NCBI GenBank assembly: GCA_963700985.1
Contig: OY969554.1
Location: 1,920,001-1,984,000, forward strand
Source of the DNA: an uncultured Chlamydiales bacterium
Lineage (GTDB): Bacteria > Chlamydiota > Chlamydiia > Chlamydiales > Rhabdochlamydiaceae
Direction: 5' to 3'
DNA length: 64,000 nucleotides
The first letter of the stretch is position 1; every line of letters starts with the position of its first letter. Both the position numbers and the translations under genes were made by a program. Shown here piece after piece: positions 20,239 through 38,968 of this stretch. The notes under the pieces were generated by a model. That model was not told the origin of the DNA, did no database searches, and saw nothing but the letters and a program-made list of their open reading frames with translations.

Positions 20239-21093
20239 TTAGCTACGTAGTGCGTTATAAAACTCAGAAACTTTATAAAAACCATCTTTTAGGTTTTGGG
20301 AGAGACCGCATTCAAGGGCGCTTTTAGCAAAAGGAACTTGCCAGCTCTCGGGTGGTTCAGGCAAAACTGCTGGTAATGGATGTGTGTTACGTGCTCTGAA
20401 TACTCTTTGCAGAGTATATTTAAAGGTGCCAAGTTCTCGATTGTCGTATTTAAGAAGCAATAGCATATCAATAAGATCTTTCGAACGTGTATTGATTTGC
20501 TCTAGAGGAAGGGTGTATGCGTGCAGCTTTTCCGCAAATTGCTGCTCTATAGAAATCATCTGAATAACCGGGGAAGTGATCCCGCAAAATTCAAGCCAGT
20601 TTGTTCCTTGAATTTTTTCTGTCTGATCGATAAGAAAATCACCACCAACATCTAGATGAAATTCTATGAAAGGCTTGTTGTCTATAACAGCTAAGACACT
20701 ATGCCGAGAGCCGCCATACGGTGCATTTTTTATATCACGTTGAGGTTGGCCGATTTGATAGGAGAAGTAATCGTTTAAATTGATACGAGCAAGAGCTTGC
20801 AGCTCTTGTAGAATTAGTTCACTTGTTGGTTCTTTTGTGTTACTCATGCGTTTAAAGCAGGTTAAATCCATGTCTTTCGTAGCCCGAGCTCGTGCAATAC
20901 GTAACTCCATTGCATAACCTCCCTTGAGAAAAAATAATGAGGGCTCTTGAGAGAAGATTCTTGCTAGAAGTCTGTCGCACGCAACTTTTTGACGGAGGCG
21001 CCTAATGCTCTCGCCCGTGTGAAAGGAATGTATTTTAAGCTGAGATTCCAACTCTTTACGAAACTCGGCAGCAGTTTTTAAGCTTATGCTCAT
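20239..21093 (-). CDS. abiEii: AbiEii/AbiGii-family nucleotidyltransferase toxin (type IV TA)
   Basis: LKGGYAMELR, RATKDMDL, AEKLHAY and TRSKDLIDM motifs. Confidence 0.92.
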   Translation of the reverse strand: MSISLKTAAEFRKELESQLKIHSFHTGESIRRLRQKVACDRLLARIFSQEPSLFFLKGGYAMELRIARARATKDMDLTCFKRMSNTKEPTSELILQELQALARINLNDYFSYQIGQPQRDIKNAPYGGSRHSVLAVIDNKPFIEFHLDVGGDFLIDQTEKIQGTNWLEFCGITSPVIQMISIEQQFAEKLHAYTLPLEQINTRSKDLIDMLLLLKYDNRELGTFKYTLQRVFRARNTHPLPAVLPEPPESWQVPFAKSALECGLSQNLKDGFYKVSEFYNALRS

Positions 21094-21097
21094 ATGT

Positions 21098-22492
21098 TTA
21101 TCCTAAAATTGAAAGCGCTGAGAGAATAGAATGTGGTCCATGAAAGTAGACATTTCTTGATCCAGATGAGGGATCGTAACCTAGGAGATCTTCGGCTATT
21201 GCAATGCCAACAAGAATAGGTGCATTATTTACGATTTTCCAAAGTCCACTACCACTAAGTCCTGCAAAGGAAGAGATAACTTTTCTTCGTAAATTCCTTA
21301 TTTCATATGTATGATTACTCACTGGACACGTTATATAGTCAGCGTTACGTAGTTGTTGATAGCTTGAGGCAACAAATGCATAAGGGCCGATGTTAAGTTG
21401 AGTTGTTCTAGGATTATCAAAATAGATTGGTTCGATACCTCCCAAAGAGACAAGAGCATCTTGCAGTAATAAATTCTGAGGTTCTTCTGGGATTTTGTAA
21501 AATGCTTTATAGATTTTAAGAGTATCTATGATCTCCGCGGTAGGTATGACAATAGCTAGGTCTTTCGGGTAAAGGGTCAGACCATTATCAAGCATTTTGA
21601 TATCGAAAGTTGAGTCCCATTCAAGCACTGTAAAGTTTTTCGAGGATTGTGCTGGGTATTCTCTTCTGATGGTGTCGAAGCGTAGAAGCATGCTGACAGC
21701 CTTTGCTTTCTTAAGAGCTCTGCCAATGTGAGTAGCTGTAAGTAGGAAGTATTTCGATTTATAATGACATAGCACTGCCGTTCCAAATCCTTGATCTTCC
21801 AAGGAAAGTCCAATCGTGTATGGTTCTATCATTCGCCCAAAATCTGCCAATTGAGCATTTGCTTGAGTCCATACTTTGTCGATTGCCTTAGCAATGACTT
21901 GGCTCATTCCATCAGATTCTGTCAATTTTTGAAGGAGTTCCATTTCTTGAATAGTTGAAAGGCCTTTAATCAAAGATTTCTGGATTGCAAGATCTAGGAT
22001 TGCAAGTTCAATTTGTTCATATTGAGTTGTTCCTTCTCGAATTATATCAGCCAAGGTTCGAAGTGGTGTAGTAACGCGGAATCCTTGTCGTATTTCTATA
22101 TCTGACTGTGATATTTCATCGACAAAGTGTAAGTAGAGGTTTTTTGGAATTTCTGTGCTTTTTCTGAAGCTACGCGGAACAGTCATGTGAAATTGGGCAG
22201 GGGATACATCGCTGAGGCCGTGGATATCAAGGGCAGTTTCGTGCGACCAAATTCCTTGAGGAATACCTTTTTTATCAGCGCTCCAAAGTGTCCAAAGTGC
22301 AAGCTCTTGCTGCGAAGAAGATGGATAATTTGCGAGTCGATAAATACCGTGAATCTCTTCTTTGTTCCATTTTCCTGACTGTAATTTACGATGAAAATTT
22401 GAGCGGGAAAACCCGCAATCTTCTGCTTGACGGCTTGTAAAGTAACCTTGTTGGCTTTCGGCAATCTGAAGAAGTCTGTTTTCTTTTTCCAT
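21098..22492 (-). CDS. AbiEi-family antitoxin fused to a C-terminal trypsin-like serine protease domain
   Basis: Residues ~1-190: IAESQQGYFT, GIYRL, SHETALDIHGL, VTTPLRTLADI (AbiEi). Residues ~196-464: GTAVL, LLTATH, KDLAIV, GLSGSGLW, LVGIA (trypsin-fold triad motifs). Confidence 0.82.
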   Translation of the reverse strand: MEKENRLLQIAESQQGYFTSRQAEDCGFSRSNFHRKLQSGKWNKEEIHGIYRLANYPSSSQQELALWTLWSADKKGIPQGIWSHETALDIHGLSDVSPAQFHMTVPRSFRKSTEIPKNLYLHFVDEISQSDIEIRQGFRVTTPLRTLADIIREGTTQYEQIELAILDLAIQKSLIKGLSTIQEMELLQKLTESDGMSQVIAKAIDKVWTQANAQLADFGRMIEPYTIGLSLEDQGFGTAVLCHYKSKYFLLTATHIGRALKKAKAVSMLLRFDTIRREYPAQSSKNFTVLEWDSTFDIKMLDNGLTLYPKDLAIVIPTAEIIDTLKIYKAFYKIPEEPQNLLLQDALVSLGGIEPIYFDNPRTTQLNIGPYAFVASSYQQLRNADYITCPVSNHTYEIRNLRRKVISSFAGLSGSGLWKIVNNAPILVGIAIAEDLLGYDPSSGSRNVYFHGPHSILSALSILG

Positions 22493-22569
22493 AACACAAA
22501 TGATATCAAATATATGATTATAATGTCAATTATGCATAAAAGTTATGCATTTGATAACAATTGTGATAT
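22491..22569 (-). promoter_or_regulatory. Promoter and imperfect inverted-repeat operator of the abiEi-protease/abiEii operon
   Basis: Minus strand TTGACA(22529-22524)-N18-TATCAT(22505-22500). 21-bp arms at 22491-22511 and 22549-22569 are complementary at 18 of 21 positions. Confidence 0.5.
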
Positions 22570-22692
22570 ATATAAGTTATTTAGAATGTGTTAGTTAAAG
22601 ATCGAGATTTTAAGCTAATCTTTCTTTGGACTTCCCGGGAACGCTGTTTAAATTGATGCTCCATTATGATGTTTTTAAACCAGAGTATAACA

Positions 22693-24392: not shown

Positions 24393-24422
24393 TTGACAAT
24401 ATCCCATTGCATGGGATATATT
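24393..24422 (+). promoter_or_regulatory. Promoter with palindromic operator for the RelE-like/HTH pair
   Basis: TTGACA(24393)-N18-TATATT. Perfect inverted repeat ATATCCCAT-TGC-ATGGGATAT (24399-24419) fills the spacer. Confidence 0.75.
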
Positions 24423-24447
24423 GCCTGTTGTAAAACAAGGCATAGAT

Positions 24448-24636
24448 GTGGAAAAGGAAACGCCAGCTTGGCAGGTCAGTGCCCTTAAAAAAGATAAGCG
24501 CATACCTGATAACTCATACCATTGTCACATCAAGAGCGGCCGGCCAACTTATGTGGTTTGCTGGCGAGTAGAGAATAAAAAAGTAAAAATAGTTGAGATT
24601 TTTTATGTCGGCACGCACGAAAACACGCCGTATTAA
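24448..24636 (+). pseudogene. RelE-like toxin, apparently internally deleted (62 aa)
   Basis: C-terminal YHCHIKSGRPTYVVCWRVE...EIFYVGTHENTPY resembles RelE-superfamily toxins paired with XRE antitoxins; the N-terminal WQV strand runs straight into ALKK without the expected helices. Confidence 0.55.
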
Positions 24637-24907
24637 GCGTCCATCCTCTGCCAGGAAAAAAGAGAAAGAGCGCCTTATTCCATGGAAAGATGCTTTCAAG
24701 GAAGAAATAGAAAAATACACCGAGGCCGGCCTTTCTTTACGTGGAAGCCGACTTAAAGAAGGACTTACTCAAAAAGAGCTGGGTGATACTTTAGGGGTAA
24801 GCCAAAATCATATCAGTGAAATGGAAAATGGCAAGCGAACGATCGGAAAAGAGATGGCAAAAAGGTTTGCAACTTTTTTCAAGACCGATTACAGAATTTT
24901 TCTATAG
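24605..24907 (+). CDS. XRE-family HTH antitoxin (HigA-like)
   Basis: LRGSRLKEGLTQKELGDTLGVSQNHISEMENGKRTIG helix-turn-helix. Confidence 0.88.
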   Translation: MSARTKTRRIKRPSSARKKEKERLIPWKDAFKEEIEKYTEAGLSLRGSRLKEGLTQKELGDTLGVSQNHISEMENGKRTIGKEMAKRFATFFKTDYRIFL

Positions 24908-38318: not shown

Positions 38319-38365
38319 TGTAACACAAACACCCAGTTGAAGTATATGGGTGTTTGTGTTACATT
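38319..38365 (+). promoter_or_regulatory. Perfect 17-bp inverted-repeat operator overlapping the promoter of the second abiE operon
   Basis: TGTAACACAAACACCCA-N11-TGGGTGTTTGTGTTACA (38319-38363); TTGAAG(38337)-N17-TACATT(38360). Confidence 0.8.
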
Positions 38366-38371
38366 TTAGTT

Positions 38372-38968
38372 ATGAAACAATCAAAATACGCAACATCTCT
38401 TCAGGCTCTATCCAAAAAACCTATTTTTACTGCTGAAGAAGGACGCTTAGCAGGGATTCCTTCTCGCATGCTTTCATATTTTTGTTCAAAGGGATGGATT
38501 GAAAGAGTTAGCAGGGGGACCTACAAAATAAAAGAGATTGAGTTTGATCAAGATTTTGAATGGGAGGATCTTGCTTTAACTGCAATGAGCATTCCCAATG
38601 GGACCATCTGCCTAATTTCTGCGCTTTGCTATTATGATCTAACAGATGAAATCATGAGAGAGTTTTGGATAGCGGTTCCTCACTCAACAACCTCGCCAGA
38701 AAGAGAAAATGCTCGCATAGTGAGAACACGTAATACAACTCTTGGGCAAACCACTACGAAAATAGGAAACAATGATCTGAAAATTTTCGATCGTGAGCGT
38801 ACAGTTGTAGATGCTTTTCGTTATTTGGATAAAGAAATCGCTCTTAAAGCACTACAAGCCTATTTGAAGACGACTAAAGAAACAAAACCAGATATAATAA
38901 AAATTATGAAGTACGCCAAAATACTCAGAGTTGATTTAACTCCTTATATTATGGCGTTTTCAGTATGA
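38372..38968 (+). CDS. abiEi: AbiEi-family antitoxin (type IV TA)
   Basis: IERVSRGTY wHTH, ICLISALCYYDLTDE, IFDRERTVVDAFRY. Confidence 0.9.
   Translation: MKQSKYATSLQALSKKPIFTAEEGRLAGIPSRMLSYFCSKGWIERVSRGTYKIKEIEFDQDFEWEDLALTAMSIPNGTICLISALCYYDLTDEIMREFWIAVPHSTTSPERENARIVRTRNTTLGQTTTKIGNNDLKIFDRERTVVDAFRYLDKEIALKALQAYLKTTKETKPDIIKIMKYAKILRVDLTPYIMAFSV

Follow-up and report, generated by a model that had tools for sequence, protein, structure and literature searches.

What is a protease doing on an AbiE antitoxin? The question is raised by a locus in a 64,000-nucleotide (nt) stretch of DNA from an uncultured Chlamydiales bacterium of the Rhabdochlamydiaceae (GenBank assembly GCA_963700985.1, contig OY969554.1, forward-strand positions 1,920,001 to 1,984,000), the whole of which is referred to here as the window. 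AbiE systems are two-gene toxin-antitoxin (TA) and abortive infection (Abi) modules made of an antitoxin, AbiEi, and a toxin, AbiEii. At this locus the AbiEi gene runs on into an apparent serine protease, and the AbiEii gene follows directly. On comparative sequence evidence, such an AbiE with a built-in protease is a real, conserved and seemingly undescribed variant of AbiE, and the protease may act as its switch. The parts of the locus are as follows (positions are those of the window; aa, amino acids; ORF, open reading frame).

21098..22492, minus strand: AbiEi-protease fusion ORF, 464 aa (ORF list and sequence)
20239..21093, minus strand: AbiEii (DUF1814) nucleotidyltransferase ORF, 284 aa (ORF list, PF08843, PADLOC)
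21923..22492, minus strand: AbiEi antitoxin part, residues 1 to ~190, with an N-terminal winged helix (residues 5-54) and the antitoxin C-terminal domain (Pfam, PADLOC, PDB)
21899..21937, minus strand: inter-domain linker, residues ~186-198, containing Met196 (codon 21907-21905) (identity per block)
21101..21907, minus strand: predicted chymotrypsin-fold serine protease domain, residues 196-464 (AlphaFold2, Foldseek)
22491..22569, minus strand: putative promoter-operator region (promoter-like site and inverted repeats)
20229..22665, no strand assigned: inserted module in its whole extent, between the 1526-aa gene (ending at 20228) and a comF-like gene (starting at 22666) (same-genus comparison)

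The AbiEi-protease gene, its toxin and its promoter region

The fusion ORF ends with a TAA stop at 21100-21098; four bases (ACAT) follow, and the ATG of AbiEii begins at 21093. That is, the order is bicistronic, with the antitoxin gene first and a 4-nt gap. An earlier note, made from the letters of the sequence, had described a full AbiEi region with a tail of ~270 aa and an AbiEii toxin 4 nt downstream, and the ORFs, Pfam and PADLOC all agree with it.

Residues 5-54 of the fusion match Pfam AbiEi_4 (PF13338; E 5e-8, over the family cut-off), residues 3-197 match the full-length PADLOC AbiEi profile (positions 26-198 of 216, E 4e-54), and residues 77-126 align with AbiEi of S. agalactiae as solved in 6y8q and 9hlo (E 3e-4). 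These matches supply the winged helix and the COG5340-type C-terminal domain of an AbiE antitoxin. A stand-alone AbiEi of 194 aa at a related locus is co-linear with the AbiEi part (56% identity), covers the same span and stops at the same place. Thus, the AbiEi part is complete, as had been claimed from the sequence.

The toxin was described as intact, and it looks so. AbiEii matches PF08843 (E 4e-23; 83 bits against a cut-off of 22.5) and the PADLOC AbiEii profile (E 5e-75), and it aligns with M. tuberculosis Rv1045 (MenT3, 6y5u; E 2e-6) with few short gaps, placing RATKDMD over RTSKDFD. T72, D74, D76 and K189 are invariant in 17 relatives; the Asp-x-Asp, the Lys and the Thr/Ser of a DUF1814 nucleotidyltransferase are all present. 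The MenT3 Ser that aligns with T72 is a phospho-site according to a preprint (S78A; 10.64898/2026.01.19.700257). Eight residues in excess of MenT3 after the Asp-x-Asp were taken for a candidate gating insertion, an idea dropped because the second AbiEii of the window is, by eye, about equally long there. A complex prediction for the protease domain with AbiEii scored 0.00, which speaks neither for nor against binding.

The C-terminal ~270 aa were said to hold His, Asp and Ser motifs in trypsin-fold order, and all three are present: His255 (LLTATH, codon 21730-21728), Asp311 (PKDLAIV, 21562-21560) and Ser413 (GLSGSG, 21256-21254). The structure check proposed for residues 196-464 recovers the fold. 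The AlphaFold2 model of the domain, from a 53-sequence alignment, reaches pLDDT 93 and pTM 0.91 and has a long N-terminal helix (~194-225) followed by two β-barrels. Foldseek against the PDB returned 316 matches at E<=1e-3, of which the top 50 listed are nearly all S1-family (chymotrypsin-trypsin) enzymes, with one DegS, at probability 1.00 and TM 0.43-0.63. When 15 diverse members are aligned, Asp311 and Ser413 do not vary, nor do the glycines beside them, and His255 is found in 14, the sole member without it being the truncated P0115; all 16 fusions examined retain the triad. The profile of this 15-member family finds S1 proteases only in the PDB, and weakly (best E 0.005), its Asp and Ser motifs aligning with those of plasma kallikrein (DIALIKL, GDSGGPL) and its His and Ser motifs with those of tissue plasminogen activator. 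The ESM Atlas neighbours of the domain are Trypsin_2 and Peptidase S1 clusters. Both hallmarks of a PA-clan serine peptidase are present, i.e., the double β-barrel fold and the His-Asp-Ser order in TAxH, D(L/I)A and GxSGG contexts. The model and the motifs together indicate that the C-terminal domain is a chymotrypsin-fold serine protease, apparently catalytically competent.

Curated families do not recognize it. No Pfam protease family matches the fusion protein even at E<=10, and NCBIfam has no match for the fusion protein or for AbiEii. Pfam Trypsin and Trypsin_2 are not reached above threshold; the relative L015 attains 17.6 bits for Trypsin_2, under the cut-off of 27.6. An exhaustive search of 1.84 billion representatives yielded 25 clusters at E<=1e-3. 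By these searches, the domain forms a small, divergent, unnamed family. Elsewhere in this genome (G000), a 302-aa protein (L027:1432-2340; G000:C1 ~635900-636800) has no Pfam match and aligns faintly (E 1.5e-4) with the part of the protease profile around the His motif. Comparable frames of ~275-330 aa are present in other chlamydial genomes, and such proteins may constitute a distant second family of cytoplasmic trypsin-like proteins.

The gene had also been credited with its own promoter and inverted repeat. The repeats are present: 22491-22569, overlapping the promoter-like site, contains an 8-nt perfect dyad (22532-22550) and 35-nt arms (22491-22525 and 22535-22569). A promoter-like site, TTGACA-18-TATCAT (11/12 match, TG before the −10), lies at 22529..22500 on the minus strand with its −10 ending 8 nt ahead of the fusion ATG, though the region holds 5 such sites against 6.2 expected from shuffles, a total not above chance. 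A dyad element of ~21 nt was found by eye, as two oppositely oriented copies ~50 nt apart, in the 110 nt upstream at 13 of 14 related loci; the fourteenth, L040, was left out of the survey, its upstream sequence ending at a contig edge. A typical copy reads ATGTTATCAAAAGCATAACAT, paired with its reverse complement. Between the end of the second copy and the start codon there are ~5 nt, and the sequence around the elements varies from locus to locus. The locus thus reads as an antitoxin-first bicistronic operon with paired inverted repeats at its promoter, and the dyad pair has the architecture expected of an AbiEi operator pair, which it is predicted to be. In the window (22492-22529) and in relatives (upstream of L034-L047), 5-8 nt separate the end of the −10 element from the start codon; by this spacing, the AbiEi-protease mRNA may be leaderless or nearly so.

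Conservation, sister architectures and distribution

The earlier note had allowed that a protease gene might have inserted at the abiEi/abiEii junction and fused by chance. A database search with the whole fusion protein gave 106 matches, 69 of them full-length (at least 95% of the protein), with 55-79% identity and lengths of 422-480 aa; those named among the 69 are all from Chlamydiota (Rhabdochlamydiaceae, Chlamydiales, Chlamydiia). The species-genome collection holds 15 loci, the records being 13 chlamydial metagenome-assembled genomes (MAGs), one Verrucomicrobiae and one uncultured bacterium. The fusion ORF is intact (464-475 aa) in 14 of them, the fifteenth being a contig-end fragment, and an intact AbiEii lies directly downstream in nine of the 14. 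A search for AbiEi-trypsin genes upstream of AbiEii in other genomes, which the note had proposed, accordingly finds that the architecture is not unique to this assembly. The 69 full-length homologues, the 14 of 15 loci and the separate fusion of the protease to AbiEii described below refute the chance origin. It is conservation that argues it away, not statistics on a single sequence.

The two domains are joined by a variable segment. Among 34 aligned fusions, mean identity to the window protein is 0.74 in the AbiEi part and 0.67 in the protease. Identity falls to 0.38 at residues 191-200, versus 0.63-0.74 in four segments; the most variable stretch is ~186-200, where divergent members show a 3-residue indel. 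An internal Met (codon at 21907) had been put forward as the seam of two genes. The codon exists, and an internal start at Met196 was nevertheless rejected because the Met is not conserved: the position is M, I or L in 14 related fusions and also V in the wider set of 34. By this pattern, the stretch ~186-200 is a linker, not a second start. The full-length AlphaFold2 model (pLDDT 84, pTM 0.71) places a low-confidence hinge at 173-179. A conserved cleavage motif in this hinge was considered and dropped, as the hinge shows no greater conservation than the sequence around it, the truly variable linker being 186-200.

The same protease is found on the toxin of a sister lineage. P0085, P0087-P0089 and P0091 (522-549 aa) combine PF08843 with a protease of the window type (45-47% identity over 55% of the query). 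In P0085, an AbiEii 55% identical to that of the window is followed by the protease at 47% identity, and P0110 (546 aa) matches in the manner of these toxin-protease fusions. L009 (G289) encodes an AbiEi of 194 aa and then an AbiEii-protease of 549 aa; L059 (G409) has the same order, with the AbiEii part frameshifted. The separate upstream AbiEi of these two loci is 192-194 aa long. As the order AbiEi-protease-AbiEii cannot be turned into AbiEi-AbiEii-protease by loss of a stop codon, the antitoxin and toxin fusions are independent, within one AbiE lineage. A protease-domain tree of 33 rows (11 of the 69 full-length homologues, the window, L023, 7 toxin-fused and 13 stand-alone forms), arbitrarily rooted and with bootstrap not fully settled, puts the toxin-fused proteases in one clade (7 rows, support 93/94) and the main antitoxin-fused proteases in another (82/64). 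The divergent fusion L023 has no resolved placement.

Stand-alone forms of the protease are 257-289 aa long. At L012:63-2340 and L013:240-2337, both on the minus strand, a protease of 286 aa heads an operon with a HicB-family gene (104 aa) and a DUF1016/YhcG PDDEXK nuclease (361 aa), with gaps of 6-10 nt; in L013 the nuclease is truncated to 301 aa, and a phage-type integrase lies just upstream. Its gene content suggests that this operon may be a protease-linked TA or defence module of its own.

The AbiEi part, too, has other partners. The AbiEi relatives P0086 and P0090 (53-55% identity) carry a C-terminal domain of ~280 aa instead of the protease; that of P0086 weakly matches DUF5677, a family of unknown function (P0086 was compared directly, P0090 via the search listing). 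In this AbiEi lineage, accessory domains thus seem to be exchanged at the C-terminus. A different sort of AbiEi-domain fusion is seen in P0092-P0108, seventeen protein clusters of ~330 aa from MAGs labelled Binatia and Deltaproteobacteria, which join an AbiEi_4-type N-terminal region (annotated in 16 of 17) to Pol-beta-type nucleotidyltransferase domains (PF18765, PF01909).

A phylum sample of 400 genomes contains 21 with a match at E<=1e-3 and 15 at E<=1e-30, this genome included; three other genomes of the same genus in that sample have no match. An order sample of 401 genomes contains 15 at E<=1e-10, of which four are new. Two genomes of the same genus, G031 and G112, have their matches to the flanking 1526-aa and comF-like genes at distances of ~390 and ~110 nt; the corresponding points here are separated by ~2.6 kb. 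Because the flanks nearly adjoin in G031 and G112, the module amounts to an insertion/deletion difference of ~2.4 kb. It is mobile and accessory in nature. Relatives of the protease were sought on plasmids and phages (tblastn) and on viral contigs (scan) with no match, and a smaller alignment (A4) found no match among metagenome contigs. The stand-alone protein P0118 matched in metagenomes only its own 2-kb contig, which has no TA neighbours.

Two further loci are recorded here. At G392:C1 ~1738700-1741000 (L014 and L024), the matches to each of the three parts, AbiEi, protease and AbiEii, are spread over two or three frames; this module is a decaying copy, frameshifted throughout. L005:217-1470 on the plus strand, at a toxin-less locus of G077, encodes a 417-aa Fic/DOC-domain protein; this gene and the fusion gene point towards each other and share a few bases at the 3′ end of the latter.

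The protease as a candidate switch

The protease family has relatives in anti-phage defence. Thirteen of 15 members match the PADLOC LmuA model PDLC03855 (best E 1.7e-12) at profile positions 5-196 of 425, a region that corresponds to the protease part at the N-terminus of an LmuA variant from Lamassu. The window protein matches it faintly, at positions 131-171 (E 9e-4 for the whole protein, 3e-4 for the domain alone). Homology to an LmuA-type protease was found, then; a Lamassu context (the LmuA C-terminal part, LmuB) or a metallo-β-lactamase (MBL) pro-nuclease was not, and none of the module's neighbours is an MBL-type nuclease. On these matches, the module is not a Lamassu system, and the protease domain alone is shared.

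A paper in Science from 2025 (PMC12799240) shows that defence systems have repeatedly acquired trypsin-like proteases, in fusion with HamA, Avs1a or LmuA, and that these are proven proteolytic switches; once activated, they cleave an adjacent MBL-fold pro-nuclease. By homology, the module's protease belongs to this mobile pool of defence proteases, here serving a TA/Abi pair. Like Hachiman HamA, AVAST Avs1a, Lamassu LmuA and DRT, the module has a cytoplasmic trypsin-fold protease on a core conflict protein, with recurrent independent fusions. In Hachiman, AVAST and Lamassu, however, the protease is N-terminal and goes with an MBL nuclease, whereas that of the module is C-terminal and goes with a TA/Abi pair without an adjacent MBL nuclease. 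The terms AbiE and toxin-antitoxin each occur 0 times in the main text of PMC12799240, its supplements being outside this count.

With AbiE and MenAT (the AbiE of S. agalactiae and L. lactis, and MenA3-MenT3 of M. tuberculosis), the module shares a winged-helix COG5340 AbiEi with its antitoxin domain, a DUF1814 toxin with Thr/Ser-x-Asp-x-Asp, an antitoxin-first two-gene operon and paired inverted repeats at the promoter. Described AbiEi proteins have ~195-205 aa, whereas the AbiEi of the module has an extra protease of ~270 aa (on the toxin in the sister lineage). Literature searches turned up no AbiE system described as carrying a protease domain. LexA and lambda CI, like ImmR-ImmA, are repressors inactivated by their own or a dedicated protease; LexA and CI have the S24 Ser-Lys dyad fold, and ImmA is a metalloprotease. 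The likeness of these to the module is one of logic only, i.e., a DNA-binding repressor at the N-terminus and a protease, attached or separate, that could end its repression, since the module's protease is a His-Asp-Ser enzyme of chymotrypsin fold. SanaTA, which also has a DUF1814 toxin, is thought to fire when Lon degrades its antitoxin, according to 10.64898/2026.01.19.700257, and it shares with the protease-labile type II antitoxins the logic that antitoxin proteolysis frees the toxin. These systems use a housekeeping protease of the cell, whereas the module encodes a dedicated one. In retron type XI (PMC7736814), a reverse transcriptase is fused to a C-terminal trypsin-like domain, a presumed effector. 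Shared with the module is such a domain on the core protein of a tripartite TA-like defence system; the core protein is unrelated, and the role of the protease is likewise unassigned there.

The preprint 10.64898/2026.01.19.700257 reports that AbiEi binds AbiEii and induces its auto-phosphorylation, and reclassifies AbiE as type VII on that ground. The earlier note's naming of an AbiE pair stands, and its label of "type IV" may be outdated. The same source calls AbiEi stable and an unlikely target of cellular proteases, and the mechanism of AbiE activation elusive. We propose a three-part, protease-gated AbiE, in which antitoxin and toxin are joined by a protease acting as the switch and AbiEi is the most likely substrate, a reading we favour tentatively and put a little short of even chances. 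At rest, AbiEi would repress the operon via the paired operators and keep AbiEii neutralized. Upon a trigger, such as infection or loss of the element, the tethered protease would cut a member of the AbiEi:AbiEii pair, most likely the antitoxin, which is otherwise stable; the cut could be made in cis or by a neighbouring molecule. With repression and neutralization thus ended, AbiEii would block translation. Where the toxin bears the protease, as in the sister architecture, the cut in the separate antitoxin would be made in trans.

Several lines of evidence speak for this proposal. AbiEi, AbiEii and the operators look functional, and the protease fold and triad are well supported. The conserved fusion, the separate toxin fusion and the stand-alone protease beside HicB and a nuclease indicate functional coupling. 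The preprint cited above finds AbiEi stable and AbiE without an established trigger, and gives activation of SanaTA through Lon degradation of its antitoxin as a proposal. The LmuA homology ties the domain to the HamA-, Avs1a- and LmuA-fused trypsins, the proven switches of PMC12799240. A stronger form of the proposal is that this is the first TA/Abi system with its own antitoxin-destroying protease: a trigger would lead to cleavage of AbiEi, repression and toxin phosphorylation would stop, and AbiEii would be freed. We regard this form as possible, if on the unlikely side.

Several observations weigh against a protease that switches on the toxin. Five of the 14 intact fusions have no intact AbiEii adjacent: it is altered at L036, reduced to remnants of 101 aa at L040 and 86 aa at L047, and absent at L037 and L043. 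L023 likewise has none intact beside it, and all toxin-less loci keep His, Asp and Ser. The protease therefore seems valuable without an adjacent toxin, unless it serves AbiEii paralogues elsewhere, and the toxin-less fusions argue against a purely toxin-releasing role. No conserved cleavage-site motif is visible in the linker of the 34 aligned fusions, and the stand-alone relatives L015 and L057 have no TA context. The DUF5677 domain in place of the protease in a close AbiEi lineage is a pattern more typical of swappable effector or sensor domains. Finally, the precedent proven in PMC12799240 is a protease that activates a partner pro-enzyme and does not destroy an inhibitor.

The loci with an intact triad and no intact AbiEii favour a different role, a second effector arm, in which the protease is itself toxic, degrades cell or phage proteins and is held by AbiEi in cis, or in trans when fused to AbiEii; AbiEi-protease would then be a single-chain toxin-antitoxin able to stand alone. 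The DUF5677 relatives fit as a pattern of effector swapping, and so does the homology to the LmuA N-terminal domain, which is the position where Lamassu carries its effector. The trypsin-like domains on retron type XI reverse transcriptases, presumed effectors (PMC7736814), are a further parallel. In the defence trypsin fusions that have been dissected (Hachiman, AVAST), however, the protease activates a partner and is not the killer (PMC12799240), and a broadly toxic protease on a DNA-bound repressor would have no obvious activation route. We judge the effector role unlikely, though worth keeping in view. Activation of a partner is in turn the published mechanism of such proteases (PMC12799240; bioRxiv 10.1101/2025.09.03.673762), and it could operate here if the protease cut AbiEii, or the DUF1016 nuclease in the HicB operons, to make a latent enzyme active as in the Hachiman, AVAST, Lamassu and DRT pairs. 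Homology to the LmuA-fused protease, the nuclease downstream of the stand-alone protease in L012 and L013, and the sister lineage's fusion of the protease to the toxin itself are in line with pro-toxin activation. It is made improbable by the lack of an MBL-type nuclease adjacent to the module, by an AbiEii that departs from MenT3 only in a few short gaps, with no obvious extra gating segment, by toxin-less loci that still keep the protease, and by the AbiEii of ordinary two-gene systems, which is active unprocessed (10.64898/2026.01.19.700257).

The protease could also belong to a regulator outside defence, i.e., a transcription factor with a self-processing or signal-responsive protease that follows the logic of LexA/CI or ImmR/ImmA and has only a secondary link to AbiEii; alternatively, it might clear excess toxin and so reinforce the antitoxin. 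The conserved operators at the fusion's own promoter and the existence of orphan fusions without toxin agree with a regulator, as do AbiEi homologues reported to regulate other loci (10.64898/2026.01.19.700257). Against these stand the toxin-fused protease of the sister lineage, the homology to a defence-system protease and the nine of 14 loci that keep an intact toxin directly downstream, and we consider a regulator distinctly doubtful. There is next to no chance that the fusion is an artefact, be it an assembly or frameshift error or a recent, functionless and decaying gene fusion; this is effectively refuted by an ORF that recurs across dozens of independent assemblies, where its identity is 55-79% and its triad never varies, and by the mean identities of the 34 fusions given above. 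Public reads bear on it from both sides. Four short contigs were recovered, three from DNA (X1) and one from a metatranscriptome; the three DNA contigs, all inside the fusion gene, agree with the window at 100% identity over their overlaps, but none of the four spans the domain junction near 21900.

How AbiE and MenAT (DUF1814) toxins are released is an open question, and an antitoxin-destroying protease, if true, would directly answer how they are switched on. The protease-switch principle of Hachiman, AVAST and Lamassu would then extend to toxin-antitoxin modules, in obligate intracellular Chlamydiota. A protease physically built into either partner offers a simple system for testing proteolytic control. 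With this module, a TA/Abi pair joins the systems that recruit from the mobile pool of trypsin-like defence proteases (PMC12799240), and environmental Chlamydiota, obligate intracellular as they are, maintain and exchange such modules.

Neighbouring genes and other AbiEii loci

The neighbours in and around the module are AbiEii, a 1526-aa protein without Pfam match, the comF-like gene and an alcohol dehydrogenase. The 1526-aa ORF (15648-20228, plus strand), which flanks the insertion and is kept in same-genus genomes, has a hydrophobic N-terminal segment and no Pfam match at E<=1e-3. The window also holds a second AbiE pair, identified by Pfam:

38354..38968: AbiEi_4 antitoxin, 204 aa
38965..39846: AbiEii, 293 aa

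The antitoxin of this pair is of ordinary size, and its use in the earlier note as an internal control is sound.

At 24421-24907 on the plus strand, ~2 kb from the AbiE module, a 71-aa ORF without Pfam match overlaps a 104-aa HTH_3 (Xre-type) ORF; the two look like another toxin-antitoxin module. A wood-decay metatranscriptome run (X2) supplied a contig of 242 nt that equals the AbiEii stretch 20293-20534 letter for letter. It is a weak hint that the organism and the gene occur, and perhaps that the gene is expressed, in a wood-decay habitat, DNA carry-over being possible.

The genome as a whole (2.07 Mb) has six PF08843 (AbiEii) matches at five loci; five of these matches are additional to the module's own. 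The further sites are G000:C1 1014324-1014980, 1261597-1262307, 1774120-1774958 and 1959067-1959732, the third of which is split across two frames. For a bacterium that lives obligately inside cells this is a large number, and cross-talk with orphan antitoxins may arise from it.

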